64,000 nt of DNA from Escherichia coli O157:H7 (lineage in GTDB: Bacteria; Pseudomonadota; Gammaproteobacteria; Enterobacterales; Enterobacteriaceae): the NCBI RefSeq assembly GCF_013167455.1, contig NZ_CP038328.1. The stretch is one strand, 5' to 3'. Under the pieces are notes generated by a model. The model did no database searches and was not told the origin of the DNA. It was given only the letters and a program-made list of their open reading frames with translations. Made by a program: the position numbers and the translations under genes. Below are positions 10,117 to 27,605 of the stretch, piece after piece; within the stretch, counting starts at the first letter, position 1, and every line of letters starts with the position of its first letter.

Positions 10117-10169
10117 GTTTAAAAGACATCGGCGTCAGCGGATGTCTGGCTGAAAGGCCTGAAGAATTT

Positions 10170-10243
10170 GGCGCGTTAACAAAGCGGTTATGTAGCGGAT
10201 TGCAAATCCGTCTAGTCCGGTTCGACTCCGGAACGCGCCTCCA
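10170..10243 (+). tRNA. cysT: tRNA-Cys (anticodon GCA)
   Basis: 74 nt ggcgcgttaacaaagcggttatgtagcggattGCAaatccg...ggttcgactccggaacgcgcctcca. Confidence 0.95.
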
Positions 10244-10255
10244 CTTTCTTCCCGA

Positions 10256-10342
10256 GCCCGGATGGTGGAATCGGTAGACACAAGGGATTTAAAATCCCTC
10301 GGCGTTCGCGCTGTGCGGGTTCAAGTCCCGCTCCGGGTACCA
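10256..10342 (+). tRNA. leuZ: tRNA-Leu (anticodon TAA), intact copy; prophage integration target
   Basis: 87 nt gcccggatggtggaatcggtagacacaagggattTAAaatccc...ggttcaagtcccgctccgggtacca, with long variable arm. Confidence 0.95.
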
Positions 10343-10408
10343 TGGGAAAGCTAAGAATAAAATCAAAGCAATAAGCAGTGTCGTGAAACCACCTTCGGGT
10401 GGTTTTTT
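10288..10408 (+). repeat. attL: left copy of the ~121 bp direct repeat (3' ~55 nt of leuZ plus its terminator)
   Basis: Nearly identical to 31693-31814 (one indel, one mismatch seen by eye). Confidence 0.85.
10385..10408 (+). terminator. rho-independent terminator of the tRNA operon
   Basis: gaaaccaccttcgggtggtttttt hairpin plus T-run. Confidence 0.7.
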
Positions 10409-10880
10409 CGTATTTGTATTTTGTGCAATGGCGGTAGAGTGGCGATGGTGTGGCGATATGCAGAAACAATGGTAGTGCACGTGCTGTTTAAACTCTAAGG
10501 ATGAAGCAGAATTCTTCTGCAGCTCCTCCGTATTTCGCATAGTGAACCAGGACCTCTGTTAAACAAAAATTTTTCTGGGATTTTTCCACTCGACTTTATT
10601 TTTCCTCCTGCAATCCACCAACAGGTACCTGCGCTAATCTATCTTTTTAATCTGACAACATCTTGGGAAAAGGCAAATTCGTCAGATTTACTGTTTTTCT
10701 GCTGCCTCGAATGCCGATGTCTGAAGCACTGATAAGAGTTCTATCTCTTTGATATAGATCTTTTTTTTGATGAATTGCACGACATATTATCGTTATGACA
10801 CCTTCTTGTTAAAGGTATTGTGCTCCTCATCTCGATTTTATGATGTGGGCTATGATTGGTTAGTAATTGAGTGTATCGGT

Positions 10881-11162
10881 ATGCGATGTGGTTTATTAAT
10901 GGCAATCTGCCTTTGTTTAGTATCTTTTAGTGGATATGCAGCAACAGGAAAGTCTGATGCTCAGATCAAAAAAGAAATAATTAAAGAATCCATTGAATCT
11001 TATCCAGGCAATTGTGCGTGTCCTTATAATCATGCAAGGAATGGTAGTAGATGTGGTGGACGCAGTGCATATAGCCGTAATGGAGGGTATGACGTGGTAT
11101 GTTATGAGGGTGATGTTACCGATGAAATGATCCGGCAATGGAAGCAGGAGAATGCTGAGTAA
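10881..11162 (+). CDS. small secreted cysteine-rich protein of unknown function (prophage cargo)
   Basis: ORF 10767-11162; likely start at the ATG at 10881 (MRCGLLMAICLCLVSFSGYA / ATGKSD... signal peptide); 4 Cys in the mature part; AT-rich. Confidence 0.5.
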   Translation: MRCGLLMAICLCLVSFSGYAATGKSDAQIKKEIIKESIESYPGNCACPYNHARNGSRCGGRSAYSRNGGYDVVCYEGDVTDEMIRQWKQENAE

Positions 11163-11261
11163 TCTCTTTTAACAGGTTTGTTGTGCGAGCATTATGTGCC
11201 GTTAACGGTTCACATCCCGAAAATCTGCGCTTCTGGCTGAAAGCCTGTCCGGTGGTCCTTC

Positions 11262-12398
11262 GTGAGCGATTTCATCAACAATGTAAGTGTAGATTCAATT
11301 GGTCAACGCAACAGTTATGTGAAAACATGGGGTTGCGGAGGTTTGGAACTATGGAAGAACGGAACAGGCTTCAGTGAAATAGCGAATATCCTGGGTTCAA
11401 AACCCGGAACGATCTTCACTATGTTAAGGGATACTGGCGGCATAAAACCCCATGAGCGTAAGCGGGCTGTAGCTCACCTGACACTGTCTGAGCGCGAGGA
11501 GATACGAGCTGGTTTGTCAGCCAAAATGAGCATTCGTGCGATAGCTACTGCGCTGAATCGCAGTCCTTCGACGATCTCACGTGAAGTTCAGCGTAATCGG
11601 GGCAGACGCTATTACAAAGCTGTTGATGCTAATAACCGAGCCAACAGAATGGCGAAAAGGCCAAAACCGTGCTTACTGGATCAAAATTTACCATTGCGAA
11701 AGCTTGTTCTGGAAAAGCTGGAGATGAAATGGTCTCCAGAGCAAATATCAGGATGGTTAAGGCGAACAAAACCACGTCAAAAAACGCTGCGAATATCACC
11801 TGAGACAATTTATAAAACGCTGTACTTTCGTAGCCGTGAAGCGCTACACCACCTGAATATACAGCATCTGCGACGGTCGCATAGCCTTCGCCATGGCAGG
11901 CGTCATACCCGCAAAGGCGAAAGAGGTACGATTAACATAGTGAACGGAACACCAATTCACGAACGTTCCCGAAATATCGATAACAGACGCTCTCTAGGGC
12001 ATTGGGAGGGCGATTTAGTCTCAGGTACAAAAAACTCTCATATAGCCACACTTGTAGACCGAAAATCACGTTATACGATCATCCTCAGACTCAGGGGCAA
12101 AGATTCTGTCTCAGTAAATCAGGCTCTTACCGACAAATTCCTGAGTTTACCGTCAGAACTCAGAAAATCACTGACATGGGACAGAGGAATGGAACTGGCC
12201 AGACATCTAGAATTTACTGTCAGCACCGGCGTTAAAGTTTACTTCTGCGATCCTCAGAGTCCTTGGCAGCGGGGAACAAATGAGAACACAAATGGGCTAA
12301 TTCGGCAGTACTTTCCTAAAAAGACATGTCTTGCCCAATATACTCAACATGAACTAGATGAACCGCCCCGGGTTTCCTGGAGAGTGTTTTATCTGTGA
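11262..12398 (+). pseudogene. IS30 transposase, damaged: canonical N-terminus missing, C-terminus replaced by read-through into IS629
   Basis: ORF matches IS30 Tnp from ELWKNGTGFSEIANILG... to ...LAQYTQHELD; the native start (MRRTFTAEEKASVF) is absent and the last ~12 codons read into the IS629 inverted repeat. Confidence 0.7.
11288..12357 (+). mobile_element. IS30 remnant (left IR TGTAGATTCAATTGGTCAACGCAACAG present; 3' end cut off by the IS629-like insertion)
   Basis: IS30 terminal repeat and transposase recognised from memory; the right end with its IR is missing. Confidence 0.75.
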
Positions 12399-12400
12399 AC

Positions 12401-13291
12401 TCAGGCTGCCAGATCATCGTTTCCGATGGAAGCATAATAAGCTTTTTCTGCTTCTGCCGGAGGAGTATGGCCCAGCCTTCCCAGCAATCGTCGATTGTTA
12501 TACCAGTCCACCCACGTTAGTGTGGCCAGTTCCACTTCTGCACGGTTTTTCCAGCTCTTACGGTGTATTACCTCCGCTTTGTAAAGACCATTGATGCTCT
12601 CAGCCATCGCGTTGTCATACGAGTCGCCTGTACTCCCTGTTGATGCCAGTAATCCGGCTTCTTTTAGTCGCTCCGTATAGGCCAGTGACACATACTGAGA
12701 GCCTTTATCGCTGTGATGGATGGTGCCAGACGGACGACGGGCCCACAACGCCTGCTCCAGCGCATCCAGCACGAATGTCGTTTCCATAGACGATGAGACC
12801 CGCCACCCCACGATGTATCCGGCAAACACATCAATGATAAACGCCACATAGACGAAGCCCTGCCATGTGCTGACGTAAGTAAAATCAGCCACCCACAGCT
12901 GGTCAGGTCGTTCTGCCACGAACTGACGGTTTACGCGGTCGCCTGCGGCAACGGCTTTCCGGCTGATGGTCGTACGGACCTTTTTACCCCGGAGAACACC
13001 GGCAAGTCCCATAACCGCCATGAGACGTGCCACTGTACATCTGGCCACCCTGATTCCTTCCCGTAACAACTGACGCCAGACTTTACGCACACCGTACACC
13101 TGATGATTTTCATCGTATACGCGCTGTATCTCTCTCTTCAGCCAGTCGTCGTGCTGCGCACGGGCACTGCGTTTATCCGGATGATGTCGCTGTTGCTGAC
13201 AATGGTAATACGTTGACGGGGCAATATGCAGTTCGCTGCATACCGGTCCGACCCCGTACTGCTCACGCAGCTTATCCAGCAGTGGCATCAT
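12401..13291 (-). CDS. IS3-family transposase OrfB (DDE integrase domain)
   Basis: 296 aa, [16 protein letters not shown]...; rve-type catalytic domain recognised. Confidence 0.85.
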
Positions 13292-13614
13292 TTTTTCCAG
13301 AGGCGGTCGAACTCCGCCTTCGCAAAATAAGCGGAAGCCTGGCGAAGGATATCGTTACTGCGGCGCAGTTCACGATTTTCACGTTCCAGCTCTTTCAGAC
13401 GCTGACGTTCAGCGCTGGTGAGCCCACCATCACCGCCCCCGGTATCCCGCTCATGCTGGCGAACCCAGACACGCAGAGTCTCCGGCGTACAGCCAATCTT
13501 TGGGGCAATGGAACAAATTGCCGCCCACTGTGAGTCATATTCATCCTGACTTTCCAGAACCATACGAATCGCCCGCTGACGGACTTCGGGGGAAAAACGA
13601 GTATTTTTAGTCAT
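13288..13614 (-). CDS. IS3-family transposase OrfA (HTH / leucine zipper)
   Basis: 108 aa, [22 protein letters not shown]...; overlaps orfB as expected for a -1 frameshift fusion. Confidence 0.85.
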
Positions 13615-13668
13615 CCTGTTTACCTCTTTCTCAGGGAGTTTAGTCTCCAGGATTTCCGGGGCGGTTCA

Positions 13669-14354
13669 ACACGATGGCTGAGGCGATTACCTACCGCCAG
13701 AAATTCAACGAACGTGAGGTGATGCTCTTATGGCCTGACTTCATCGCCTACAACCTGAAAAGTGGCAAAAACGAAACGTTCCCCGCGCCTGCTTATGCGT
13801 GCGGCCTTCGTGCGTACATTGACCATGAGCAGGGCTGGCACAAATCGCTGTCCAACGTTCCGGTTAAAAATGTGCTTGGGATGTCGAGGCATGTGTTCTG
13901 GTCGTTGCAGGCCGAAGACAGTGATGCCAACAGCCTCAACAACAAAGAAATCACGACCATTATTCGTCGCAACGGGTTCCGCTTCTGGGGCAACCGCACA
14001 CCGGAAACGAACGCCTACATCTTTGAGGTGTATACCCGAACCGCACAGGTGCTGGCTGATTCAATTGCGGAAGCGCAGTTTGAAACCATCGACAGTCCAC
14101 TGACACCTGCGAACGTGAAGGATGTTATCAGTGCCATCAGGGCAAAACTGGATTCACTGGTTACTGCCGGGAAACTGATTGGCGCGGAGTGCTGGTATGA
14201 CATCGAGGATAACAGCACCACGAATTTACGTCAGGGGCGTGTGCGTATTCGCTACAAATATACGCCCGTTCCTCCGCTGGAAGACATGGAGCTTTACCAG
14301 TCGTTTACTGATGAATTCTTTGGTCCCGCATTTGCGGTGCTGGGAGGTGCCTGA
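13669..14354 (+). pseudogene. P2 FI-like contractile tail sheath, C-terminal fragment (5' end cut off by IS629 copy 1)
   Basis: 226 codons continuing straight from the IS junction; resembles the sheath C-terminus; a full sheath is ~390 aa. Confidence 0.7.
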
Positions 14355-14866
14355 TGGCTGTACCAAAACATCTTCGCTTTTTTACGCTGTTTGTGGATGG
14401 TGAAAACGAAGTGGGTAAGGTGACGTCCGTCACCCTGCCTAAACTGACGCGCAAAACCGACAGCTACCGGGGTGGTGGCATGATGGGTGCGGTAAGTATT
14501 GACCTCGGCCTGGACGACTCCGCGCTTGATGCGAGCTTTGTCATGGGGGGCGCAGTTCGTGAGCTGTTCCTGAAGTATGGCGGCACGATTGACGGCACGC
14601 TACTGCGTTTTGCGGGGGAATACTACACCGATGATGAAAGCGACCTGTATGAAGTCGAAATGCGCGGACGTGTGACGGAAATTGATATGGGGGAAGCCAA
14701 ACAGGGCGAAGCCACATCACACACTTACGCCATTAAAAACACCTACTACAAGCTGAGTGTTAACGATCGCCCGTTGTGGGAGATTGACCTGCTGAACTTC
14801 ATTTACCGGAAGGACGGCAAGGACATTGTGCCCGATCGCATCCGTTCCGCGCTTGGGCTTGGCTGA
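14354..14866 (+). CDS. P2 FII-like tail tube protein
   Basis: 170 aa; TLPKLTRK...YRGGGMMGA...DLGLDD motif pattern of P2 FII. Confidence 0.8.
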   Translation: MAVPKHLRFFTLFVDGENEVGKVTSVTLPKLTRKTDSYRGGGMMGAVSIDLGLDDSALDASFVMGGAVRELFLKYGGTIDGTLLRFAGEYYTDDESDLYEVEMRGRVTEIDMGEAKQGEATSHTYAIKNTYYKLSVNDRPLWEIDLLNFIYRKDGKDIVPDRIRSALGLG

Positions 14867-14920
14867 TAAGTAATATGCAGGCGGCGCAGTGCGTCGCCTC
14901 TGACTGAAAGGAGTTTCCTG

Positions 14921-15450
14921 ATGAAAGAGACGAAAAACATCGATACCGAAAACACGGTAGTTACTGACACTGTGAAAGAAACCAGTGAGCGTGGTGTAAA
15001 ACTTACCCAACCAATTGAGCGAGGCGGCGAAAAAATCACGTATGTGGAGATCACCGGGGCTATTGAGCAGGCTGGATCTCTGCGAGATTTGTCGCTGTCT
15101 GATGTGCTGAATCTGAAAGCGGAATCCATGTTTACGCTGCTGTCACGCGTGACATCACCGCGACTGGATGAAGTGACGATCAAAAAAATGGCATCCCGTG
15201 ACTTTATTCAGTTATGTGTGGTTGCCGTAAATTTTTTGAGCGGTGCGGACTCTGGCGGGAAGAACGAACAGGCGACGGAAGCCTGATCACGGTTGTGTGC
15301 TTTGAGCACATAGAAGACTTTGTGGCAGATATTGCCGTTATTTTTAACTGGTCGCCCGCCGAAATCTTCATGATGACGCCCGGCGAAGTGGTTAGCTGGC
15401 GTGAGCGGGCGGCACTTCGCAGCGGGAATGCAGACAATGAAGACTCTTGA
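14921..15450 (+). CDS. tail assembly chaperone GpE and its -1 frameshift product E+E' (slippery T TTT TTG at 15232-15238)
   Basis: E frame ends at 15286; an overlapping -1 frame ORF (15214-15450) begins at the TTTTTTG heptamer, the conserved P2 E/E' recoding arrangement just upstream of the tape measure gene. Confidence 0.65.
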
Positions 15451-17527
15451 TATCCGGGTCGCTTTCAGCGCCGTTGACAGGCTGACCCGACCTGCCGAAA
15501 ACGCACGCCGCCTGATGGGGCAGTTTGGTGACTCCATCCAGCGAACGCAGGGGGCGATCAAAAATCTCGAGCGTCAGGCGCGATCATTTGAGCGCGCCCG
15601 CGACGCTGTCAGTAAAGCGGATGCTGGCATCGTGAAAGCACGACGCCAGCTTAACGCCCTTAATCAGTTACAACGCACGGGTACAGTGCTCAGCGAAAAA
15701 CAACAAAAGCTGATGCAGCAGTTAAGCACCCGGCTTGAACGCCTGAATGAATCGCGCACACGGGAAATTCAGAAAATGAGGGAACTTGGCGGAGAGCTGA
15801 AACGCCACGGCATTTCCCTGACAGGCAGCGATAACACCATTCAGCAGGCCATCAGACGCACCGAACAATACAACAACCAGCTTGAACGCGAACGGCAGGC
15901 GCTTGCGCGTGTAACGCAGGCGCGTGAGCGGTATTCGCACGCGCAGGAAACCGCGGGAAAACTGAAAACAGGTGGTGCGCTGGCAATTGGTGCGGCAGCG
16001 GCGGGCGGCTATGCTGCCGGGCGTTTTTTGCAGCCTGCGATCGGGTTCGGCAAAGAGATGTCCCGCGTTCAGGCACTGACGCGAATCGACAAAAACAGCC
16101 CGCAGTTTAAGGCGCTGCGTGAGCAGGCGTTAAAACTTGCTGAAACACAGTTTACTGCGAGTGATGCCGCCAGTGGGCAGAGCTTTCTGGCAATGGCTGG
16201 TTTTACTCCGCAGGCCATTCAGGCCGCATTGCCCGGTGTTCTTAATATGGCGCTGGCAGGTGGCGTCGAACTCGGCGAGACGGCTGATATAGGCTCCAAT
16301 ATCCTCACACAGTTCAACCTGACAGCCGATCAAATGGACCGGGTGGGCGATACGCTGACAGCAGCATTTACCCGGACCAATACTGATTTACGCGCGCTGG
16401 GCGAAACCATGAAGTATACCGGTCCGGTTGCCGCAAAACTTGGTATCAGTCTTGAAGAAGCGGCGGCCATGGCCGGGATGCTTGCCAATAATGGTCTTCG
16501 CGGAAGCGATGCTGGCACGGCCATGCGCGCAAGTCTGTCCCGCCTTGCATCACCGCCAAAAGCTGCGGCTGATGCACTGAAAGAGCTGGGGGTGTCAGTT
16601 GCTGACGCCAGAGGCAAAATGCGCCCGATGGAGGATGTGCTGCTTGATCTCTATAAGGCGACACAAAAATACGGACAGGTGGACCAGGTCTCCTTCTTCA
16701 AGGACATCGCCGGAGAAGAGGCGTTCGTTGGTTTGCAGACGCTTGTTGCGGCGGCTGGTTCAGGAGAGCTGCAAAAACTGACCAGAGAATTGCAGGGGGC
16801 AAGGGGAGAGGCCGATCGCGTCGCAAAAGTAATGGCTGATAATCTTGATGGGGACCTGAAAAATCTCGACAGCGCATGGGAAGGTCTTCGTATTCGCATC
16901 AGTGATCTGGTTGACGGTCCGCTGCGTTCTGTCACGCAGTGGCTCACGCGGGTGCTTGAAAAAATCACCTCGCTGGCGCAGGCCCATCCGGTACTGACGC
17001 GCCAGCTACTGATAGCAGGCGGTGCGTTGCTGGCAATGACTGCAACGATTGGCTCGTTGTCGCTGGTTATTGGGGTGCTTTACGGGAAGCTGGCCACCCT
17101 GCGTCTTGGTTTTGACATTCTTACCCGGTCAATGAATGTCGTCAGGGTGTTACCTGCGCTATGGGGAATGGTGACGGGTTCCGTTTCTTTACTGGGAGGC
17201 GTTATCGGGGCGTTGTTCAGTCCGGTTGGTCTTATCGTGGCTGCGCTTGCCGGAGCTGCCGTTCTTATCTGGAAATACTGGGATCCTATCAGGGCTTTCT
17301 TTGCCGGGGTGTTCAGCGGGATTATGGAAAGGCTGACCCCGTTGCGCGACACCTTTGAACGGTTTGGCCCTGTTTTTGACGTAATCGGAAGCGGTTCAGC
17401 CAGGTGTTTAACTGGTTTAAATCGCTGCTGTCACCGATGGAGTCCAGCAAGGAAACGCTGGATAAATGTACCAGTGCTGGCGAGGTATTCGGTAACGTTC
17501 TTGGTGGTGCGTTACAGCTTGTTCTGA
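15401..17527 (+). CDS. tail tape measure protein (GpT-like), N-terminal reading frame
   Basis: 708 codons, coiled-coil rich with hydrophobic segments; position after E/E'. Frame changes near 17380-17527. Confidence 0.75.
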   Translation: MSGRHFAAGMQTMKTLDIRVAFSAVDRLTRPAENARRLMGQFGDSIQRTQGAIKNLERQARSFERARDAVSKADAGIVKARRQLNALNQLQRTGTVLSEKQQKLMQQLSTRLERLNESRTREIQKMRELGGELKRHGISLTGSDNTIQQAIRRTEQYNNQLERERQALARVTQARERYSHAQETAGKLKTGGALAIGAAAAGGYAAGRFLQPAIGFGKEMSRVQALTRIDKNSPQFKALREQALKLAETQFTASDAASGQSFLAMAGFTPQAIQAALPGVLNMALAGGVELGETADIGSNILTQFNLTADQMDRVGDTLTAAFTRTNTDLRALGETMKYTGPVAAKLGISLEEAAAMAGMLANNGLRGSDAGTAMRASLSRLASPPKAAADALKELGVSVADARGKMRPMEDVLLDLYKATQKYGQVDQVSFFKDIAGEEAFVGLQTLVAAAGSGELQKLTRELQGARGEADRVAKVMADNLDGDLKNLDSAWEGLRIRISDLVDGPLRSVTQWLTRVLEKITSLAQAHPVLTRQLLIAGGALLAMTATIGSLSLVIGVLYGKLATLRLGFDILTRSMNVVRVLPALWGMVTGSVSLLGGVIGALFSPVGLIVAALAGAAVLIWKYWDPIRAFFAGVFSGIMERLTPLRDTFERFGPVFDVIGSGSARCLTGLNRCCHRWSPARKRWINVPVLARYSVTFLVVRYSLF

Positions 17528-18240
17528 CGCCTGCAAAAATGTTGCTGGATACGCTGGCGTGGATACTTGAAAAACTCGGTGTGCTTCCGGATGAAGCGGA
17601 AAGGGCGCGCAAGAAAATCGAAGACGCACAACGTGCGGCCATTCTTCAGGACAAGGTTGCTCTGTTTCAGGGAGACATTGCGAAAATCAATCCGCCGAAG
17701 TCTGCGGGAAATAGCAATGGCACCGGAGATGATAAACCCAAAGACAACAAACCTCTCACAGACAGCAATACCGGCACGCTACGCAGACTCAGCAAAATTG
17801 CTGATAACACAGGTAAGCTGGTTGATGAGACAAAAAAACGCATTGGCCCCGGCGATATTGTCTTTAAGAACCTGCCCCGCGCACTTGCTGTTCGTGGGGA
17901 GTGGCAGGAGCGGAAGATTGCGCAGGTCAGTAAGCCTGCCCCCGCAATTAATATCACACCCGTGGTCCCGGCTCCGCTGCCTCCGGCGCTGGTCCCTGTT
18001 GTTGCGGCCAGCTCCCGCCCGGTGGTGGAGGCCATACGATCGCCAGTGGCATCAGTTCCTGCAACTTCCCGTAACCGGGAGCCTGTTGCCTCCGGATTTG
18101 GCGGTGAAATTCATGTTCATCTGCATAACGTTGTTACGCAGAATCCCCGCGAACTGGCGAAACTGGTCGGCGAAATGGTCAGGGCAGAAATGGAACGGCG
18201 CGCCCGTGCCAGGCGTGGCAGTTTTTACGATAAAGATTGA
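17404..18240 (+). CDS. tail tape measure protein, C-terminal segment in a different frame (apparent frameshift)
   Basis: 278 codons in the +2 frame relative to the upstream part; this frame opens after a stop at 17377-17379. Confidence 0.6.
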   Translation: MFNWFKSLLSPMESSKETLDKCTSAGEVFGNVLGGALQLVLTPAKMLLDTLAWILEKLGVLPDEAERARKKIEDAQRAAILQDKVALFQGDIAKINPPKSAGNSNGTGDDKPKDNKPLTDSNTGTLRRLSKIADNTGKLVDETKKRIGPGDIVFKNLPRALAVRGEWQERKIAQVSKPAPAINITPVVPAPLPPALVPVVAASSRPVVEAIRSPVASVPATSRNREPVASGFGGEIHVHLHNVVTQNPRELAKLVGEMVRAEMERRARARRGSFYDKD

Positions 18241-18246
18241 GGAGTC

Positions 18247-18741
18247 ATGGCCATGATGATGATCTACGGCATGTTTGTTTTTGAGCTGCGCACGTTGCCG
18301 CATCAGCAGTTACAGCAAAACAAAAGCTGGCGACATGTGAAAAATGAACGCGTTAACCGTTCAGCAAGCTGGCAGTATATCGGTGCAGGTGATGATCGCA
18401 TCGTTCTTTCTGGTGTTCTTTATCCTGAGATTACTGGTGGCGAAGTGTCGCTGTCGTTGTTGACCACGCAGGCATATACAGGACGTCCTTGGCCTTTGAT
18501 TGATGGCGTCGGGCAGATTTACGGCATGTATGTCCTGACCGGAACGAATACGACCCGCTCCGAGTTTGATCGCTACGGTAAGGCGAAAAAGATAGAATTT
18601 TCACTGACTCTTGAACGCTGTGATGAGGATTTGCGGGAGCGCCTGCAATCCTCATCGTTCAGCGATATGCTGTCCGGCTTCAAAGATAAGGTGACATCAT
18701 CCCTTAATAGCGCGGCCAGCTCAGTTAAGGGGCTGCTCTGA
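18247..18741 (+). CDS. P2 GpU-like tail protein
   Basis: 164 aa; MMMIYGMFVFELRTLPHQQLQ... resembles P2 U. Confidence 0.8.
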   Translation: MAMMMIYGMFVFELRTLPHQQLQQNKSWRHVKNERVNRSASWQYIGAGDDRIVLSGVLYPEITGGEVSLSLLTTQAYTGRPWPLIDGVGQIYGMYVLTGTNTTRSEFDRYGKAKKIEFSLTLERCDEDLRERLQSSSFSDMLSGFKDKVTSSLNSAASSVKGLL

Positions 18742-18864
18742 TTTAACGTATGTCGCCAATTTCCTGATGAAGGTGACTGGCGACTTGCTGTTGTATGTCC
18801 TTCTCAGAAAATTGTTTTTGAATAACAAATAACAGGATTTTATAATCTCTTAACCTTATAACAT

Positions 18865-19470
18865 GTGTGGTCTGAAATAATAATTAAGGAGATTATCGTG
18901 CTATCTTACTTAATGGCAATTCACTTTGTTTTATTTGGAAACTCTACTAATTTAAAAAACTTCTGGAAACATGAAGTAATTCGGCGGAAACGTATGGATA
19001 TCTGGAGGCTTTTAAGAGAGAAAAAGCAGCGTAACCGGAATTTCCTTTTCTGGTGGCGGTTGGCTAACGAAATGTATATTAATGGTAATAAATTACATAA
19101 GAAAGCAGCCAAAAAGTTAAACAGTAAAATAATTAACAAGTTTGGTTGTGAAATAGGATTGGGCGCAAATATTGGAAAAGGGTTGACAATTCCCCATCAT
19201 GCTGGAATTGTTGTTCATTTTGCTGTTGATGCGGGTGAAAATCTGGTATTACGACAGAATACTACCATTGGACAGATAGATGGTGATATGCCTAGTTCAA
19301 GAGTAAAAATTGGTAGTAACGTTGATATCGGAGCTAATTGTTGCATCATTGGATTATCACGTAAAATTGGGGATAATGTAAAAATAGGTGCAATGTCTTT
19401 TATAAATAAAGATATACCATCAAACTGCACATATATAACTAAAAAGAGTGGTGTTGTATTGTATAAATAG
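18865..19470 (+). CDS. left-handed beta-helix (hexapeptide-repeat) O-acetyltransferase, CysE/WcaB/NeuO-like (prophage cargo)
   Basis: Hexapeptide repeats (IGANIGKG...IGSNVDIGANCCIIG...IGDNVKIGAMS); strongly AT-rich; the true start may be an internal Met. Confidence 0.65.
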   Translation: MWSEIIIKEIIVLSYLMAIHFVLFGNSTNLKNFWKHEVIRRKRMDIWRLLREKKQRNRNFLFWWRLANEMYINGNKLHKKAAKKLNSKIINKFGCEIGLGANIGKGLTIPHHAGIVVHFAVDAGENLVLRQNTTIGQIDGDMPSSRVKIGSNVDIGANCCIIGLSRKIGDNVKIGAMSFINKDIPSNCTYITKKSGVVLYK

Positions 19471-19513
19471 AGTACATAAAGCCATCGATATTTCTGTCGA
19501 TGGCTTTTTCTTT

Positions 19514-19930
19514 TTATTGTGGGGCGACTGGCCACTCAACATCCGCTGCTACTGTTGTATCAACACGATTCAACAATACCCGATATGTCTTCCATGCAGC
19601 CAGTAACGATGCCTCTTCCTCCGTCGCAATATCCAAATCTACGGCATCCTGAAGTGGCGCAATATGCTCACTGGCTACCTGCATCAGGCTGTTTTTTGTT
19701 TCTTCTGCCTCCCGTACCCGAAACAGTTTTTCTGCTTCTGCATCTTTCGCCCAGGATGTGCCGTTCCACTTCTGACACTCTCCATCCGGCGACAACCAGG
19801 TAACATTTTCCGGTAACGGACCGAGTTCAGAAATAAATAACGCGTCGCCGGAAGCCACGTCATAAACCGTTTTACCCCGATGATCTTCAACGAGATGCCA
19901 CGATGCCTCATTACTGTTGAAAACAGCCAC
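19514..19930 (-). CDS. tail fibre assembly protein (Tfa family), 5'-truncated; the reading frame continues upstream to 20046 without a start
   Basis: C-terminal Tfa region recognised; the upstream frame 19931-20046 translates [38 protein letters not shown] and runs into IS629 copy 2. Confidence 0.75.
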
Positions 19931-20046
19931 GAAGCCAGCCGGAATATCTGGCGGTGCAATATCGGTACTGTTTGCTGGCAGACCTGTATGAGGCGGAATG
20001 TATGCGTCACCTTCACCAATAAATTCATTAGTTCCGGCCAGCAGAT

Positions 20047-21104
20047 TGAACCGCCCCGGGAATCCTGGAGACTAAACTCCCTGAGAAAGAGGTAAACAGG
20101 ATGACTAAAAATACACGTTTTTCCCCCGAGGTCCGTCAACGGGCAGTCCGTATGGTTCTGGAAAGTCAGGGCGAATATGACTCACAATGGGCGGCAATTT
20201 GTTCCATTGCCCCAAAGATTGGCTGTACACCAGAGACTCTGCGTGTGTGGGTTCGTCAGCATGAGCGGGATACCGGGGGCGGTGATGGTGGACTCACCAC
20301 CGCTGAACGTCAGCGTCTGAAAGAGCTGGAACGTGAAAATCGTGAACTGCGCCGCAGTAACGATATCCTTCGCCAGGCTTCCGCTTATTTTGCGAAGGCG
20401 GAGTTCGACCGCCTCTGGAAAAAATAATGCCGCTGCTGGATAAGCTGCGTGAGCAGTACGGGGTCGGACCGGTATGCAGTGAACTGCATATTGCCCCGTC
20501 AACGGATTACCACTGTCAGCAACAGCGACATCATCCGGATAAACGCAGTGCCCGTGCGCAGCGCGATGACTGGCTGAAGAGAGAGATACAGCGCGTATAC
20601 GATGAAAATCATCAGGTGTACGGTGTGCGTAAAGTCTGGCGCCAGTTGTTACGCGAAGGTATCAGGGTGGCCAGATGTACAGTGGCGCGCCTCATGGCGG
20701 TTATGGGACTTGCCGGTGTTCTCCGGGGTAAAAAGGTCCGTACTACCGTCAGCCGGAAAGCCGTTTCCGCAGGCGACCGCGTAAACCGTCAGTTCGTGGC
20801 AGAACGTCCTGACCAGCTGTGGGTGGCTGATTTTACTTACGTCAGCACATGGCAGGGCTTCGTCTATGTGGCGTTCATCATTGATGTGTTTTCCGGATGT
20901 ATCGTGGGGTGGCGAGTCTCATCGTCTATGGAAACGACATTCGTGCTGGATGCACTGGAGCAGGCGTTGTGGGCCCGTCGGCCGTCCGGCACAGTCCATC
21001 ACAGTGATAAAGGTTCTCAGTATGTATCACTGGCCTATACGGAGCGACTAAAAGAAGCAAAACTGCTGGCATCAACAGGGAGTACAGGTGACTCGTATGA
21101 CAAT
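20047..21104 (+). mobile_element. IS3-family IS629-like element, copy 2, 3'-truncated (~1058 of ~1310 bp), inverted relative to copy 1
   Basis: Left IR TGAACCGCCCCGGGAATCCTGGAG at 20047; similarity to copy 1 stops after ...gactcgtatgacaa (~21104). Confidence 0.85.
20101..20427 (+). CDS. IS3-family transposase OrfA
   Basis: 108 aa, nearly identical to copy 1 OrfA (a few substitutions). Confidence 0.85.
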
Positions 21105-21116
21105 GTATTTTATTAG
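20427..21116 (+). pseudogene. IS3-family transposase OrfB, C-terminally truncated
   Basis: 229 codons versus 296 in copy 1; diverges after ...[11 protein letters not shown]. Confidence 0.8.
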
Positions 21117-21135
21117 TTCACATACAATTATCAGA

Positions 21136-21450
21136 TTATTCTGGGAATAAGGTCTGAATATTCTTTTTTATTTTATAAAAATTGCATTCAACTCCGCTAG
21201 GCTGATTAGCCTGGTATGTTTCCTTGATGCTAACGGTATTGAAGGGGAGGTTGTCCTCTGGCCATTCGGCCATCCAGTAGGCAAATGCTGGGTTGCGCTT
21301 TATGAGTGCTAGCCCAGCCAGAAAGGCCGCGCGTTGCGCGCGGCTGCGTTCGGAGGCTGGCAGGCTATCGAGGTAATTGCACGCCTCCTGTTCACTCTTG
21401 ACGGCGGCGGGCTTCAGATAGAAACTTATCCGTCTGGTTGGTGTCGTCAT
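21136..21450 (-). CDS. ParR/StbB-like centromere-binding adaptor of a type II partition system
   Basis: 104 aa; RRISFYLKP...LDSLPASERSRAQRAAFLAGLALIKRNP resembles plasmid R1 ParR (recalled from memory). Confidence 0.65.
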   Translation of the reverse strand: MTTPTRRISFYLKPAAVKSEQEACNYLDSLPASERSRAQRAAFLAGLALIKRNPAFAYWMAEWPEDNLPFNTVSIKETYQANQPSGVECNFYKIKKNIQTLFPE

Positions 21451-21454
21451 TGGT

Positions 21455-22414
21455 TTACTCCTTGTTCATTGCGTACAACCCATTAACCAGAGCAAACTGT
21501 GGCACCCCGTCCGCGATGAAAGTCGCATTAACTCCGCAGGCTTCGCGGATAGCGGTTGCCACAATCTCCGCCCCGCCACCGACAACCATCACCCGCCCGT
21601 AACCCGAAAAAACCGCCAGCGCGCGGATCACGCGTTGTTTCAGTGTTTCTTCCTTTTCACGAATAACCGCCATCAGGCTGGCGTAATGCGCGTCATTGTG
21701 GATGTGCTGGCGCAGCCAGGCTTCATCATGGCGATGTTCGATAATGGTATTGGCGATGTGGTGACTGGTGCGCATACCGTTAGTGGCCATCACCGACAGT
21801 ACGGCATCGGCCATCAGAGAAACGCCTACGTGTGGATCGCAAAACACCTGGCTGATACCTGCCAGTTGCCCCTGAACCTTTGCCACATCCAGCGTGGTTC
21901 CGCCCAAATCCACAATCAGCAGGGATTCAAACGGACTCATGTCAGCCAGTGCCTTAAAGCCAGCAGGAATGGATTCAGGCATAACCCGTACGTTACGGAT
22001 AGTGAATGCTTCGCCGTTCTGGTACTCCACCGGGCGCATGACGTTCGCTTTTTTGCGGTTGATGTTGGCCATGTCCGGCTGTGCGTTTGTATCGAAATAC
22101 TCGCTCAGTGGCAGGGTGACAACCACATCCACTTCCTGTGGTGTGATGCCTGATTTGACCAGCGCGTGATGAATGGCAATTACATTCACATCGCTGTACT
22201 GGTATTGCGTGTCGGTCGTCTGGACAAAGCGATCGCTGACCGGATCAAAACCATAGCGCACGCCATCAAGCATGTAGTTCGCGGGCTGCGTGCCACCGAA
22301 TGGCGCAGACCATTCCGACTTGAAGCTGTTCGGGCTGATGGCGTTGCGGCGTTCGCCGTTCTCAGTCCATGCCAGCTTGATGTTGGTGGAGCCGTCGTCG
22401 ATACAAATTTTCAT
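21455..22414 (-). CDS. ParM/StbA-like actin-family partition ATPase
   Basis: 319 aa; actin-fold motifs IDDGSTNIK (phosphate 1), LIVDLGGTTLD (phosphate 2), VMVVGGGA (adenosine). Confidence 0.75.
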   Translation of the reverse strand: MKICIDDGSTNIKLAWTENGERRNAISPNSFKSEWSAPFGGTQPANYMLDGVRYGFDPVSDRFVQTTDTQYQYSDVNVIAIHHALVKSGITPQEVDVVVTLPLSEYFDTNAQPDMANINRKKANVMRPVEYQNGEAFTIRNVRVMPESIPAGFKALADMSPFESLLIVDLGGTTLDVAKVQGQLAGISQVFCDPHVGVSLMADAVLSVMATNGMRTSHHIANTIIEHRHDEAWLRQHIHNDAHYASLMAVIREKEETLKQRVIRALAVFSGYGRVMVVGGGAEIVATAIREACGVNATFIADGVPQFALVNGLYAMNKE

Positions 22415-22450
22415 GTCGCTTTTCCTTATGTTGATTAATTAATCGGTTAC

Positions 22451-22560
22451 AGGATTTTTAAATCCCGCTTTTGCCTGTTTTGTGCGCGCTTCATATATCG
22501 CGGCGCGTTTTTTGCTCATTTACGGGATTTGTGAGTCCCGTTTCTGTCTGTTTTTTGTTT
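22451..22560. repeat. two copies of a ~35 bp repeat, each containing a GGATTT..AAATCC-type palindrome; candidate parC-like centromere or operator
   Basis: aggatttttaaatcccgcttttgcctgttttg (22451-22485) and cgggatttgtgagtcccgtttctgtctgttttttg (22525-22560), directly upstream of the parM-like gene. Confidence 0.4.
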
Positions 22561-25313
22561 CCACTGGTCAGGCCACCCCGCAGCAGGTCTGCTTTGCGGC
22601 TGGCGCGTTCAGTGGTTTCACTGATTCTCTGTGCGTGCTCTGCGTCGCGGATGGCGCGCAGCATGTCAGAAAGCACGGTAACGGGTGTTTTCATGGTGTT
22701 CTGGTCCTGCTGAAGTGTGGATGCCAGGCGTGCGGCGGCTTCAGGGTCTGATGCCCCCAGCTGTGCCAGATAGCTGGCGACCGGGTTATGGCGGATCTCC
22801 GTGCTGCTTACGCCATGATTACGGCTCAGGCGCTGCCAGAGCTGCGTGATTCGGCTGTCCGGGCGGGTATCCGGTTTGCGTACAATTTCAAATCCCTGCG
22901 GTGCAATGATGCTGCCGTCAACGTACAGACTGCCGCCCCGTAACAGGTGCTGCATCTGTTGTTCACCGATATGCAGGCCGAGAGATTCAGCAGACTCCCG
23001 CCATTCTTTAGCGAGTAATTCGTGGTTATCAGGCAAAGGCCGCTGCTGTTTGCGGCTCTGTGTCCAGCTCTGCATTTCATCACTGCTGTTTTTTGCCTGT
23101 TTGTCACGAAGCGAACGCATCAGCGCCCGGCGTTCGTGCCGTTTCAGTGAGCGCATCCATTCGTTCACGTCAACGCCGTCAGGAAGCTGCGGCCACGGTG
23201 CTGGCCGTTCTTCCGGCTGTTCTGTCCCGTTGTTGTCCGTTTCCTGTACACGGGGACAGTTATTGCCACGAGTCCAAGGGGCGGCAGGGCCGCCCTGAAG
23301 GTCAAAACCATTTTCGCGGGCGCTGTCTTCTACTCCCGGTTTACGTCTTACCAGCTTCCAGTTATCCGGGTGCGTGCACACACGGGAGGATTCCCCGATG
23401 AGTGGTGACCAGATCCCGTAAATCTGTACGCTCTGTTCGCCGTAATCGTTCAGCTCATCTGCGAGGTCGTAGGCGGTGCGAATCAGGTAGTCCTTGCGTG
23501 GAACAAGTACGCCTCCCTGTTTCTCAATGTAGGTGGTAAAACATCCGGCATCAGCGGCAGCAAGAACCGCATCCATTGCGTCATCCTTCAGCCGTTGCGG
23601 GCCTTCCGGGTTGCGTGCCATCTGGCTGGCAAGGCGACGCAGTTCACGCCACACCTGACGGGAGGGGATGCCAAAGAACTGGAACTGGCGGACCCGGTGA
23701 AGGCGCGCCCAGCCAATGGCGCGTTCCACGCTCTCGGTCATTGATTTTCCGGTTTCGTGGTCAACGCGTGGTTTGCCTGTTTTCGGGTCGATGCCATCCA
23801 CGGCGCGGCTGTCCAGGTTTTTTCCGATGTAGGTGGCGATGTAGCTGGTTGGCGTGCCTTTTGAGCCGTCGACATACTCCGCCTTAAAGCGCGGAGTAAT
23901 ATCATCGCCCAGCTCGTGACGATCTTCCTGAATGGCAATATCGCGGGTGTGGGACACAATGGTGTCGATTTCTTCCGGATGAGCAAAGACCATCATATGC
24001 CAGTGCACGGTGCCGTCATGGTGAGGCTCCACCGTGCGGATGCCATACCAGCGCAGGCCGTCGCGGTTCAGTTTCTTGCGGACCGCCGCAAAAAACGTGT
24101 TAACCAGGTAATCGCTGGAGTCGCGCATGGTGGCCCCGTTCCATTTGGGATTCGGATGACCGTTCTCTGTTGTAGCGTGGTATTTTGACGGGCAGGTGAC
24201 AGTCAGAAACACCGCTTTGTCGCCACGGGCTTCGGCCAGAAGTTCCAGCCCCTTCATGGTGGCCATCATTTCTGCCTTACGGTGAACCGGGTTACTTACT
24301 CCCGCGTAATACACTGTCTCGAGATCAATCGTGAACCCGTCTTCGTTTTCCAGCATGAAACTTTTCAGGAAATCGCGTGTTTTCTCGCGCTGTGCGCGAA
24401 ACTCGCTTAACGCGTCCTGGCTCAGATAGGGCGATGTTTTTCTGGAAACCAGACAGGCGGCGCGGAGTTGTTCTTCTCTCCACTCGCAACGTAACAGCCA
24501 CAGTTTGCGTTTCCACCATTCCGCACAGGTCAGGCGAAGGATTGCGCCCGGCAGCAGCTCCGTGTCCGGTTCGTTCCTCCGGTCTTTGTCTGTTGTCAGT
24601 GCGTCATAATGTGGAGGCATGGCGTGCAGGTGTAACGCCATGCGGGCCAGCATCTGATACGCCTTCAGCGTTACATCCATGGTCAGTTCGCCATCGGTCG
24701 CGCCAAAGCCATCGCAGAGTTTTTCGAAGGTGCTGCTGAACATCGCCGCCGTCATGGTGGCCAGCGTCTGTATCTGGTGTTTGTTGAGCTGCGGCAGGTA
24801 AAGCAAATCGTCCAGGCGTTCGCGTCCGGCAAGGGAGCGATAACCCTGTGTCAGCCAGCGGTGATCGGTGCGCTCCAGACGTTCGAATATTTTGCGCAGG
24901 TTTCCGCGCGCGTAGCGTTCAGCCTGCCAGCTCTTTTTGCCTTTCTGACGATCGGCTTCCTGTTTTTTGCGCAGGAAGGAGAGGTGGCGAATAAGCGGAT
25001 CGCGCAGATAGGACGGCAGCAGGCGCAGCGAGGCCATGGCTTCATCCACCGCACCGCGTGCCTGTTTTCTGGCGTCTCCTGCCAGTGTGATGGTTTTGTC
25101 CTGTTTTTCCTGTGCGTCCAGGCTTTTATTAATCAGGTTGCCCAGCGGCGTTGCGGAGAACGCCGCATCAGCCATTTCCTGGCGGCGCTCGTTCTCTACC
25201 CGGTAGGCATCCAGCCAGGAGGAAAGCGCGGATTCAGGAGCGGGGATCCCCGTTCCTTCACGCCCCACTGCGTGGCGCGGTTGTTGCCAGTCCCTGATGT
25301 ACTCTGCCGTCAT
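22491..25313 (-). CDS. rolling-circle replication initiator endonuclease, P2 GpA-like
   Basis: 940 aa; HxH-type motif (GTVHWHMMVFAHP) and YIATYIGKN tyrosine region typical of the GpA family. Confidence 0.8.
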   Translation of the reverse strand: MTAEYIRDWQQPRHAVGREGTGIPAPESALSSWLDAYRVENERRQEMADAAFSATPLGNLINKSLDAQEKQDKTITLAGDARKQARGAVDEAMASLRLLPSYLRDPLIRHLSFLRKKQEADRQKGKKSWQAERYARGNLRKIFERLERTDHRWLTQGYRSLAGRERLDDLLYLPQLNKHQIQTLATMTAAMFSSTFEKLCDGFGATDGELTMDVTLKAYQMLARMALHLHAMPPHYDALTTDKDRRNEPDTELLPGAILRLTCAEWWKRKLWLLRCEWREEQLRAACLVSRKTSPYLSQDALSEFRAQREKTRDFLKSFMLENEDGFTIDLETVYYAGVSNPVHRKAEMMATMKGLELLAEARGDKAVFLTVTCPSKYHATTENGHPNPKWNGATMRDSSDYLVNTFFAAVRKKLNRDGLRWYGIRTVEPHHDGTVHWHMMVFAHPEEIDTIVSHTRDIAIQEDRHELGDDITPRFKAEYVDGSKGTPTSYIATYIGKNLDSRAVDGIDPKTGKPRVDHETGKSMTESVERAIGWARLHRVRQFQFFGIPSRQVWRELRRLASQMARNPEGPQRLKDDAMDAVLAAADAGCFTTYIEKQGGVLVPRKDYLIRTAYDLADELNDYGEQSVQIYGIWSPLIGESSRVCTHPDNWKLVRRKPGVEDSARENGFDLQGGPAAPWTRGNNCPRVQETDNNGTEQPEERPAPWPQLPDGVDVNEWMRSLKRHERRALMRSLRDKQAKNSSDEMQSWTQSRKQQRPLPDNHELLAKEWRESAESLGLHIGEQQMQHLLRGGSLYVDGSIIAPQGFEIVRKPDTRPDSRITQLWQRLSRNHGVSSTEIRHNPVASYLAQLGASDPEAAARLASTLQQDQNTMKTPVTVLSDMLRAIRDAEHAQRISETTERASRKADLLRGGLTSGNKKQTETGLTNPVNEQKTRRDI

Positions 25314-25319
25314 AGTGAT

Positions 25320-25685
25320 TTACTTCGTCATGCCATTCAGGGTGTCGCGGCAGGCTGTAGCCAGCCGCTGAATTTCCAGCACGGTGTCTTCTGTGTCGGC
25401 ATGGCGATGTGTGATGCGGATGCTGTCGGCAATCACATCGACGATTGCAGAGGATGGGCGCTGGTAAATGCCAATAACGGACGGGGTGCCACCTTCAATG
25501 CGGTAAAGCCTGTAATTTCCCTCGTGGCTGTCAATCATGTAGCGACCATCAATAACAATCTTTCCGTCAGCGAGCTGCGGTACAGGCAGGGATTTCAGGT
25601 ACATGTCATAACGATCACGCACGCGAGCGGCAAGATCACGTTCTGTGTTGAGCAGGTATTCAAGAAAGTCGTTGGCGAGAATCAT
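25320..25685 (-). CDS. hypothetical prophage early protein
   Basis: 121-aa ORF ending 6 nt before the gpA start; same strand. Confidence 0.5.
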   Translation of the reverse strand: MILANDFLEYLLNTERDLAARVRDRYDMYLKSLPVPQLADGKIVIDGRYMIDSHEGNYRLYRIEGGTPSVIGIYQRPSSAIVDVIADSIRITHRHADTEDTVLEIQRLATACRDTLNGMTK

Positions 25686-25757
25686 TGCGGCAATCCTCTT
25701 GTTACAGATGTGCGAAGGCCTCCCGCCGCAAGGTGCAGGAAAGGCCCGGAACAGGAA

Positions 25758-25988
25758 TTAATGGAGTTTGTTTTGCTGCTGGATGAGCTGTTGAAACTCG
25801 TGCAGATCATCCGCCAGATAGCTGAAAACAGAGGCGGAATAAATGTTTGATAGTGCGTGGCTGCGCTCATGCAGCATATTGATGTGCATGATTTGCGCGA
25901 CGCGTGATGCGCGGGAAAGTCTGCGGTTGATTTCAGTCTGGATGTGACGACGCTCCGCGATAGCGCGGTGCTGTTTGCGGTCTGCCAT
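25758..25988 (-). CDS. hypothetical prophage early protein
   Basis: 76-aa ORF in the early operon. Confidence 0.4.
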   Translation of the reverse strand: MADRKQHRAIAERRHIQTEINRRLSRASRVAQIMHINMLHERSHALSNIYSASVFSYLADDLHEFQQLIQQQNKLH

Positions 25989-26310
25989 GGTGTGGCCTCT
26001 TTGCTCGGTGATAGAAATAACTCACCATCCAGAGTTGAGAATCTCGGGGTGGCGAGACGTACAGGGTTCTCAACACCGGAGAGCAAAGAATCCGGCCCGA
26101 CCGAAGTCGGCCCCGTACGCCCCGCCATAATTCTGACGCGAAAAAGACGTGGCAATACAGTACGCACAAAAAAACCGCTAGCGCGGTTATGCGCTTTGCT
26201 CTGTATCGGGTTGAGAATCCCGGCACCCGTTTTATGAGGTGCAGCGGAAATGTAACCTGACCGATTGCGGCATGGCAAGCGGTTTTTTTGTGTGTGCATG
26301 TTCTGGTTTC

Positions 26311-26610
26311 TTACTGGTTCAGAAAAAAATCAAAAACGTTATCGATGCGTTGCAGCAGCTCTTGCTGCATTGCTTCCGGCGTTTCCGGTTCGCCAGGTGC
26401 CCCCAGCGTTGCGCAGAAATCAGCGATTTCATGATGGAGCGTGAGGCGAATGGCAGGAGCCGTGGTTCTGGCGTGCTCCAGCTGATCCAGCAGTGCCAGC
26501 ACAGCAGACGGCGAGAGCATTGCGCGAAATGCCAGTAATTTTTGAGGCGTTGCCATTCGTTGCAGGGCAAATGCCAGTTCGCGTAGCTTCTGGTGGTTGA
26601 TGGTGCTCAT
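26311..26610 (-). CDS. hypothetical prophage early protein
   Basis: 99 aa; start overlaps the upstream stop (translational coupling). Confidence 0.5.
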   Translation of the reverse strand: MSTINHQKLRELAFALQRMATPQKLLAFRAMLSPSAVLALLDQLEHARTTAPAIRLTLHHEIADFCATLGAPGEPETPEAMQQELLQRIDNVFDFFLNQ

Positions 26611-26873
26611 GCTCTGGCTTCCTTCAGTAGCTGGTTAAACATGTGAGTAAGTGGATTGCTACACCCGAACGGCATCGGGTTTACGTGGTAAGAAGCCTGG
26701 CCTCCTGTTTTGCGAGCGCGACCACCTGTGCTGCGGTTTGTTCTGATGACTAAGCCGCCGCGCCAAAGTCGGCGTAACTCAGCATTAATGGCTGTGGTTG
26801 GGGTATTCAGTGCTGCGGCGATCTCTCCGCCGCTACACCCCGGATGAGTAGCGATGTAGTCCAGAATGGTCAT
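26607..26873 (-). CDS. hypothetical small protein, possible winged-helix DNA-binding
   Basis: 88 aa; coupled to its neighbours by 4-nt overlaps. Confidence 0.45.
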   Translation of the reverse strand: MTILDYIATHPGCSGGEIAAALNTPTTAINAELRRLWRGGLVIRTNRSTGGRARKTGGQASYHVNPMPFGCSNPLTHMFNQLLKEARA

Positions 26874-27073
26874 CTGCGTGGCTCCTGTACCTGTCGGATA
26901 AGATTTACTCGCGCCACGTTGGTGGCGCAGAAGTAAGTGCCGTCAGTGAGGTAGATGTGGTGTGCATCCTTTTCCGAACGATGTTTGTCGATAGTGGTAA
27001 TCAGGCGTTCGTCGACCTCGTATTCGCGCCCTCTGGAGGTAAAGCGAACGACGGGAAAATGCTTAATTGCCAT
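26870..27073 (-). CDS. hypothetical prophage early protein
   Basis: 67-aa ORF, translationally coupled. Confidence 0.45.
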   Translation of the reverse strand: MAIKHFPVVRFTSRGREYEVDERLITTIDKHRSEKDAHHIYLTDGTYFCATNVARVNLIRQVQEPRR

Positions 27074-27096
27074 TGCGCCCCCTTTGTCCAGTAACC

Positions 27097-27513
27097 CTAT
27101 GCGTTAAATACGGCACGTTGCGCGTCATCAATGAATACAGCTTGAGAGCGTTCTATCAGGCGGAGATTTGTCAGAAGCTCTGACTCTTTTGTGTGGTAAG
27201 GCGTTATCAGGTATTTGCCGTGCAGTTCGGCAATAATGGTGTATTGCAGCATCATTGCTGAACCAAGAATATAAATGCAGCGTCCAATGCTGGACGGATT
27301 CATGGCTGCAACTGTTGACTGTGTTTTAAGAGTGTCGATTTCTTTGCTCTGTTCCTCAATAACTTTGGCTGCTTCAGGGGTGGCTATTGCGATGGTCAGT
27401 GCGTAAAGCGCTGCCATATGTTGATTATCTTTCTGGGCTGCCCTGGACAGCTTGTCTTGCTCTGCTGACACTATTTTTAATGTATTGATAATATTTTTTT
27501 CTTTTGCGTTCAT
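27097..27513 (-). CDS. hypothetical prophage early protein
   Basis: 138-aa ORF with a consistent coding strand. Confidence 0.5.
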   Translation of the reverse strand: MNAKEKNIINTLKIVSAEQDKLSRAAQKDNQHMAALYALTIAIATPEAAKVIEEQSKEIDTLKTQSTVAAMNPSSIGRCIYILGSAMMLQYTIIAELHGKYLITPYHTKESELLTNLRLIERSQAVFIDDAQRAVFNA

Positions 27514-27605
27514 TTTATATCTCCGTTATTTACGTGTGCGAATACCTCCGCGAATGCGGATAGTTTTCAGGTTTTCGGGTTTAATCTGGTGTTCTGTTTA
27601 AGCTG

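Follow-up and report, generated by a model that had tools for sequence, protein, structure and literature searches.

A probable type II (ParMRC-like) partition cassette with a two-dyad candidate centromere in the P2-like prophage Sp13 of Escherichia coli O157:H7

We performed bioinformatic and comparative genomic analyses of a 64,000-nucleotide stretch of an E. coli O157:H7 chromosome (assembly GCF_013167455.1, contig NZ_CP038328.1; hereafter, the window), focusing on the parM and parR genes carried by the P2-like prophage Sp13. A preliminary description of this DNA had proposed a ParM/ParR-type module directly after the replication gene gpA, in the order parM then parR, and both the coordinates and our homology searches agree with it. 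The genes and sites at this locus are the following:

22491-25313, minus strand: gpA-type replication endonuclease, 940 amino acids, upstream of parM
22520-22557, minus strand: distal 38-nt repeat, candidate parC site 1, within the gpA 3' end (last ~22 codons)
22524-22539: distal dyad core GGGACTCACAAATCCC (sense strand), -125 from the parM ATG
22447-22484, minus strand: proximal 38-nt repeat, candidate parC site 2, in the gpA-parM spacer
22451-22466: proximal dyad core GGGATTTAAAAATCCT, -52 from the parM ATG
21455-22414, minus strand: parM (stbA, ECs_2634), 319 amino acids, actin-like segregation ATPase
21136-21450, minus strand: parR (ECs_2635), 104 amino acids, ParR/StbB-family adaptor (PF10784)

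In the minus-strand order gpA, parM, parR, a spacer of 76 bp separates gpA from parM and 4 nt lie between the parM stop and the parR start; the whole cassette extends from about 22602 to 21136. The Sakai annotation names ECs_2634 stbA, 'plasmid partition protein', and ECs_2635 'plasmid partition protein', PGAP names the two products 'plasmid segregation protein ParM' and 'plasmid partitioning/stability family protein', and both match PHROGs 'partition protein' families (ParM, 1e-89; ParR, 1e-54). About a quarter of P2-like phages have been reported to carry a putative partitioning system at the gpA-gpQ hotspot (Rousset et al., 2022), which is where P2 carries tin/old, as the preliminary description had recognized; the phiSM paper lists the cassette as a 'fitness' gene. 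Given these annotations and the precedents of srpMRC and AlpAC (see below), the earlier statement that a segregation system is unexpected for an integrating phage was too strong. The module is already known and annotated; our contribution is to delimit the cassette and to describe a conserved candidate parC made up of two dyads. In a search of mostly open-access literature, we found no functional study of parMR in P2-like or Xuanwuvirus phages, only annotation-level mentions.

Homology searches assigned both proteins to the ParMR protein families of R1 and pB171. A phmmer search against the PDB aligned R1 ParM (PDB 1mwk) with the 319 amino acid protein (E = 7.3e-93, residues 2-316), and the actin-fold nucleotide motifs that had been proposed for it are present in this alignment, including the phosphate-1 (IDDGSTNIKL), catalytic Glu (MPESIPAG), phosphate-2 (DLGGTTLD), and adenosine (GGGAE) motifs. 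The hidden Markov model searches agreed, with matches of ParM to StbA_N (PF06406, 2.5e-82) and to the ParM C-terminal domain (PF21523, 5.4e-69) and of the 104 amino acid ParR to Plasmid_stab_B (PF10784, 9.4e-29); NCBIfam gave sub-threshold matches only for ParM and none for ParR. An intact 319 amino acid parM open reading frame (ORF) is kept in 85 P88-like loci, and the ratio of nonsynonymous to synonymous substitution rates (dN/dS) of parM is 0.08 (69 alleles), compared with 0.14 for the essential gpA gene, indicating that purifying selection acts on the cassette across the family. Our IMG/VR scan with the ParM alignment, which recovered copies 98-100% identical only, was used for these allele statistics and not for deep comparison.

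As a single sequence, ParR matched ParR of pB171 (2jd3), the closest solved ParR, weakly (E = 0.012), and a profile built from eight phage ParR homologues matched it over its full length (E = 9.6e-13), so that both the N-terminal portion, which binds DNA, and the C-terminal tip are covered. The AlphaFold2 monomer model of ParR was poor (predicted local distance difference test score, 64.9), and Foldseek found nothing below E = 6 in the PDB. Both ends of the protein are conserved between phage and plasmid homologues, namely the N-terminal strand RRISFYLKP and the C-terminal tip KKNIQTLFPE, while the linker between them is hypervariable; residues N97 and F102 (motif NxxxLFP) are invariant across the phage ParRs and one IncI/K plasmid ParR. 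At least three linker variants occur in P88-like loci, with the N-terminal 14 residues MTTPTRRISFYLKP and a C-terminal NI(Q/R)xxFP tip in common, and the Sp13 copy carries one of them. Compared with P88-like loci, parR is a mosaic (21136-21396): the ParR types are only ~57% identical overall, with breakpoints within the gene, whereas parM shows 98-99% identity. The first 14 residues are common to the ParR types (the first 18 between the O157 and P88 alleles), as are the last ~8.

Upstream of parM, the preliminary description had noted two palindrome-bearing repeats. These repeats are real, each 38 nt long, although they had been placed 4-5 nt away from the positions listed above, and the one said to lie inside the gpA 3' end does so. 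The repeats are 30/38 identical (79%), lie 73 bp apart, and represent the longest direct repeat that our repeat search found in the 2-kb region; among 500 dinucleotide-preserving shuffles of the upstream regions (186 nt and 300 nt), none reached 30/38 and the maximum was 25. On the coding strand, each repeat unit consists of an A-rich 18-mer followed by a dyad (CGGGACTCACAAATCCCG in the distal and CGGGATTTAAAAATCCTG in the proximal unit). Both dyad cores fit the pattern GGG-N10-CCC, which has 6 occurrences in the whole window, and GGGA-N8-TCCC occurs 3 times in the 35.8-kb genome of phage P88, 2 of them upstream of parM. For E. coli and E. albertii, the paired GGG-N10-CCC dyads are found at -125/-52 from the parM ATG, for Hafnia at -128/-55, and for Plesiomonas at -131/-59. 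Their spacing is thus 72-73 bp throughout, also in the P2-like prophages of Plesiomonas and Hafnia, whose ParM is 62% identical to that of Sp13. Within the P88-like loci, the upstream regions were too alike overall for per-column conservation to pick out the dyad arms.

The same gpA type is found without parMR in ~84 E. coli genomes. In one parMR-less example, inspected over its whole length, homology to the window ends at ~22603, the gpA tail is different, and neither dyad is present. Because the parMR-less allele diverges at this point and lacks the dyads, the parMR cassette includes both dyads together with the last ~37 codons of gpA; the boundary coincides with the 22600 of the preliminary description. 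Its reading of the repeats as a candidate centromere is supported by the recurrence of the two-dyad layout in the 62%-identical lineages and by the absence of both dyads from the parMR-less allele, and we consider the two dyads to be the best candidate for parC. In a parMR-less gpA allele of NZ_AP027156.1 (1-2765), the cargo directly after gpA comprises an AAA-family ATPase and an S8 peptidase, which look like a candidate defence pair.

We also analyzed whether, instead of binding ParR, the repeats could serve as the gpA origin, form a transcription terminator or another RNA structure, or determine incompatibility or anti-phage activity as part of the defence hotspot. The gpA protein itself matches PHROG 91, 'nicking at origin of replication' (1.4e-274), and is named 'replication endonuclease' by PGAP. 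The exact P2 nick-site sequence is absent from the window, and local alignment identified a homologous stretch in gpA:

23238-23303, minus strand: putative origin, homologous to the P2 gpA nick site GCGCCTCGGA|GTCCTG

In the P2 record the nick site lies 427 bp before the A stop, and the stretch identified here lies ~0.75 kb from the gpA stop. Since this stretch is separate from the repeats, the repeats were ruled out as the gpA origin. A scan of the plus strand flags 22522-22541 as terminator-like, but no plus-strand gene reads into the sites. On the sense strand, the RNA folds somewhat better than shuffled sequences (z = -2.06 only), but its hairpins are followed by no U-tract, and a terminator was rejected on this strand as well. 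The locus is a known defence hotspot, but PADLOC returned no match to its known or candidate defence models at E<=0.1 for ParM, ParR, or gpA; moreover, the dyads co-occur with parMR. A role of the repeats other than ParR binding thus appears hardly credible.

The cassette is widely distributed. Of the 5426 complete E. coli genomes, 1302 (24%) carry it, so that about a quarter have a plasmid segregation machine in a P2-like prophage. The same cassette, at 96-98% DNA identity and in the same place after gpA, is found in phages known from plaques or induction, namely P88, vB_EcoM-569R5, Citrobacter phiSM, and other Xuanwuvirus phages, and it corresponds to the hotspot system of Rousset et al. (2022); the O157 copy differs from these only in lying in a deletion derivative and in carrying one particular ParR linker variant. 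In Plesiomonas, Hafnia, Serratia, and Enterobacter, ParMs with 54-62% identity are all encoded after gpA in P2-like prophages and are always followed by a PF10784 protein. In the six lineages with ParM identity of at least 54%, the context is a P2-like prophage with parM adjoining gpA, and a portal gene lies beyond parMR wherever the contig reaches that far; ParMs with at most 53% identity have no gpA in their vicinity. The P88, 569R5, E. albertii, Plesiomonas, Hafnia, Serratia, and Enterobacter loci all have the cassette between gpA and gpQ.

Among species-representative genomes, ParMs at least 58% identical to that of Sp13 always have gpA upstream and those at most 53% identical never do, in a scan with narrow peptide patterns that gave only 39 loci. 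The nearest plasmid ParM is only ~52% identical to the phage ParM clade; ParM of IncI/K-type plasmids is 51% identical (tblastn) and that of the phage-plasmid D6 is 48% identical. Because ParM identity tracks the gpA context and falls to ~52% for the nearest plasmid protein, the phage cassette is a distinct and widely spread lineage of R1-type ParMR. The phage-plasmid ancestry put forward in the preliminary description is neither supported nor excluded. The Serratia and Enterobacter P2-like prophages carry a second phage parMR lineage, with a ParM 54-58% identical and a ParR of 133-134 amino acids, in which a long inverted repeat (GAAATAGAAAAATG-N26-28-CATTTTTCTATTTC) and a CCGTTTAAACGG palindrome are located upstream of parM; a ACAGGCAAAAACGGGA stretch is common to this lineage and the E. 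coli cassette.

On this basis, the locus is best explained as an authentic partition cassette of type II (ParMRC-like), an accessory module standard in P88-like P2-family phages and retained in the defective Sp13. We put at about 0.6 the probability that its role is the partitioning or positioning of excised or infecting circular phage DNA, which we consider the most likely one. In the proposed mechanism, ParR dimers would bind the two GGG-N10-CCC dyads, whose 73-bp distance corresponds to ~7 helical turns, and the conserved ParR C-terminal tip would, by analogy with R1 and pB171, capture the end of ATP-ParM filaments, whose growth would drive the sister circles away from each other. The system would probably act on the extrachromosomal circle of the phage rather than on the integrated prophage; this circle exists after infection before integration and again after excision during gpA replication. 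The effect may be less loss of the element at cell division, positioning of replicating circles, or both. Our scans detected no terminator and no consensus promoter between gpA and parMR, and for this reason parMR is probably co-transcribed with the early operon and switched on when the phage is derepressed.

Several observations weigh against the proposed partition role. The part of the cassette in DNA binding, filament formation, and stabilization is one that we infer from sequence. No conserved sigma-70 promoter was found upstream of parM, either in a strict scan or in a relaxed scan of four lineages, and the classical autoregulated layout, with parC overlapping the promoter, is not seen in the sequence. 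Only two sites are present at parM, whereas one IncI/K plasmid parC shows many short repeats and R1 parC has about ten 11-bp direct iterons, five in each of two blocks. Upstream of parM, the Serratia/Enterobacter lineage shows a different repeat layout, without the GGG-N10-CCC pair, and one arm of the O157 proximal dyad has changed from CCC to CCT relative to P88 and most relatives. Finally, the cassette occupies 1440 chromosomal and 2 plasmid places in the complete E. coli genomes; with 1440 of 1442 places chromosomal, a stable plasmid state is therefore at best rare.

This last count bears on the idea, suggested as a possibility by Rousset et al. (2022), that P88-like phages are facultative phage-plasmids whose prophage persists long-term as a low-copy plasmid instead of, or besides, integrating. 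Consistent with this idea, the PLSDB entry 'plasmid pZ1323PEC0009-2' (NZ_CP148288.1) is a 34,461-bp circular record of a complete P88-like genome with integrase, parMR, and hok/gef, and the ParM of the phage-plasmid D6 is related, at the identity given above. However, the circular record could be either a plasmid-state prophage or simply induced phage DNA. The attP junction is split by integration in all ~440 genomes with that integrase type, and the integrase is kept in all lineages whose contigs reach that end. In addition, gpA initiates the lytic replication by a rolling-circle mode, and plasmid-type copy control is not evident. In the window, the cassette is chromosomal and in a P2-like prophage context rather than on a low-copy plasmid, and the element encodes an integrase and is integrated at leuZ-yecA rather than maintained extrachromosomally; the circular record of 34.5 kb is the single exception to this pattern. 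Long-term maintenance of these phages as plasmids is improbable in our assessment.

The prophage that carries the cassette, and the insertion sequence (IS) remnant beside it, are located as follows:

10408-31813, minus strand: prophage Sp13 (P2-like, P88/Xuanwuvirus type, defective), between leuZ and yecA
20101-21116, plus strand: truncated IS629 (IS3 family), at the deletion point and adjoining parR; the portal side is deleted

The region shows 99.98% identity over 18,146 nt with the Sakai feature 'prophage Sp13, P2-like phage' and is 100% identical in many E. coli O157:H7 chromosomes. It had been described as an integrated P2-like prophage, and integrated it is, but as a defective, IS-truncated deletion remnant and not as an intact phage. 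The Sp13 early region is intact, but the prophage has lost its head, lysis, baseplate, and fibre genes; relative to P88 (NC_026014), ~17 kb (10131-27594) are missing, a gap that begins immediately beyond parR and reaches the tail-fibre assembly gene. The IS629 remnant is labeled 'IS3 family transposase, frameshifted; incomplete' by PGAP and 'IS629 transposase OrfB / IS3 partial' in Sakai.

Such decay raises the question of whether the O157 cassette is a functionless passenger and its repeats without a role there, as the loss of late genes, the IS629 remnant adjoining parR, and the altered arm of the proximal dyad might indicate. Nevertheless, both ORFs are intact, the Sp13 ParM shows 98.7-99.1% protein identity to the ParMs of plaque-forming or induced phages, and the CCT variant is present in other prophages too. 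The purifying selection described above acts across the family, and Sp13 is still proficient in excision and replication: it excises, circularizes, and is amplified ~30-fold by mitomycin C, with induction of early-region transcripts (PMC2669165). The partition genes are not mentioned in that paper. We regard the passenger explanation as very improbable, slightly more so than plasmid maintenance.

A more serious alternative is that the cassette organizes lytic replication, with ParM filaments positioning or spreading both replicating circles and circles that serve as packaging substrate and with no effect on stable inheritance. P2 replication yields monomeric circles, in line with this possibility. 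The position of parMR on the same strand, 76 bp after gpA and with neither terminator nor consensus promoter in between, suggests early-operon expression, the early transcripts of Sp13 increase when the prophage is induced, and an experimental precedent exists in AlpAC of CGP3. On the other hand, about three quarters of P2-like phages do not carry the cassette, and for this reason it is not needed for a P2-type lytic cycle. It also resides in an accessory hotspot, beside lysogenic-conversion and defence cargo, and Sp13 keeps it intact though unable to make virions. A purely lytic role is accordingly a minority possibility, though the least unlikely of the alternatives to partitioning or positioning of the circular DNA.

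A further, rather unlikely extension of the partition reading is that P88-like phages, even the virion-less Sp13, have a dual lifestyle, in which, after excision or infection, the monomeric circle replicated by gpA would be actively partitioned by a minimal two-dyad centromere and could behave like a plasmid for generations before re-integrating or lysing. If true, P88-like phages would count as facultative phage-plasmids that carry an integrase, and the reason for the long retention of Sp13 in O157 would be found. If the cassette stabilizes or positions the excised circle, as we favor, it would extend to tailed phages the idea already shown for integrative and conjugative elements (ICEs) that plasmid maintenance functions serve during an extrachromosomal phase, and might explain the persistence of replication-proficient remnants like Sp13 in O157:H7. 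The two-dyad candidate centromere offers a compact and directly testable target.

Among characterized systems, the cassette shares with ParMRC (parA/stb) of R1/R100 the order of (candidate) parC, parM, and parR, a full-length ParM match with identical nucleotide-binding motifs, the ParR Pfam family, and repeated sites directly upstream of parM. It differs in being carried by an integrating P2-family phage and not a plasmid, in having two dyad-symmetric sites 73 bp apart in place of the two blocks of direct iterons of R1, in the location of one site inside the gpA coding end, in the lack of a recognizable promoter in the sites, and in its shorter ParR (104 amino acids); its candidate centromere is therefore atypical. 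From the pB171 system it differs in the centromere layout, in addition to the weak single-sequence ParR match.

Two systems of normally chromosomal elements are informative as regards function. The srpMRC locus of SXT/R391 ICEs stabilizes ICE R391, in which replication of the circular form starts at oriT (PMC4489591). Like the phage cassette, it is a type II partition locus on a normally chromosomal element, and it acts on a transient circle, as the phage cassette would; this circle is replicated by a rolling-circle-type initiator, and the centromere is small, with four 13-bp repeats. In contrast, SrpM and SrpR are distant from R1 ParMR, of which the phage cassette is a close homologue, the host element is an ICE rather than a phage, and the function of srpMRC has been demonstrated experimentally while the phage cassette is known from sequence. 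In the second system, AlpAC/alpS of the Corynebacterium prophage CGP3, the circular DNA of the phage is tethered to filaments of an actin-like protein, and its efficient replication depends on AlpAC (PMC4446434). This system likewise combines, in an integrated prophage, an actin-like ATPase and a DNA-binding adaptor with sites upstream of the operon, and its genes are induced early after excision. It differs in that alpA precedes alpC, in that AlpC is a distant actin-like protein and not an R1-type ParM, and in its shown role, which is efficient phage replication.

Other features of Sp13 and its relatives were identified during this analysis. Intact P88-like phages carry a gene for a Hok/Gef-family toxin near the ogr/att end (P88 NC_026014, 34928-35068; NZ_CP148288.1, 1291-1431), so that counterparts of parMRC and of hok/sok, the two stability loci of R1, occur together in these phages; a tblastn search found no hok/gef homologue in the window. 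Compared with Sakai, the window has an extra IS629-like copy at ~12353-13668, beside the IS30 that truncates gpD. The tail tape-measure gene is frameshifted in Sp13 (15401-18240, plus strand), and a serine O-acetyltransferase gene (18865-19470, plus strand) separates gpU from the remnant of the tail-fibre assembly gene, at the place that the invertase and fibre region takes in P88. Finally, the Sp13 early region encodes a P4 epsilon-like 'derepression protein' (25758-25988, minus strand), which P88 has as well; such a protein has been proposed as the reason for the mitomycin C inducibility of the P2-like prophage, unlike P2 (Asadulghani et al.).

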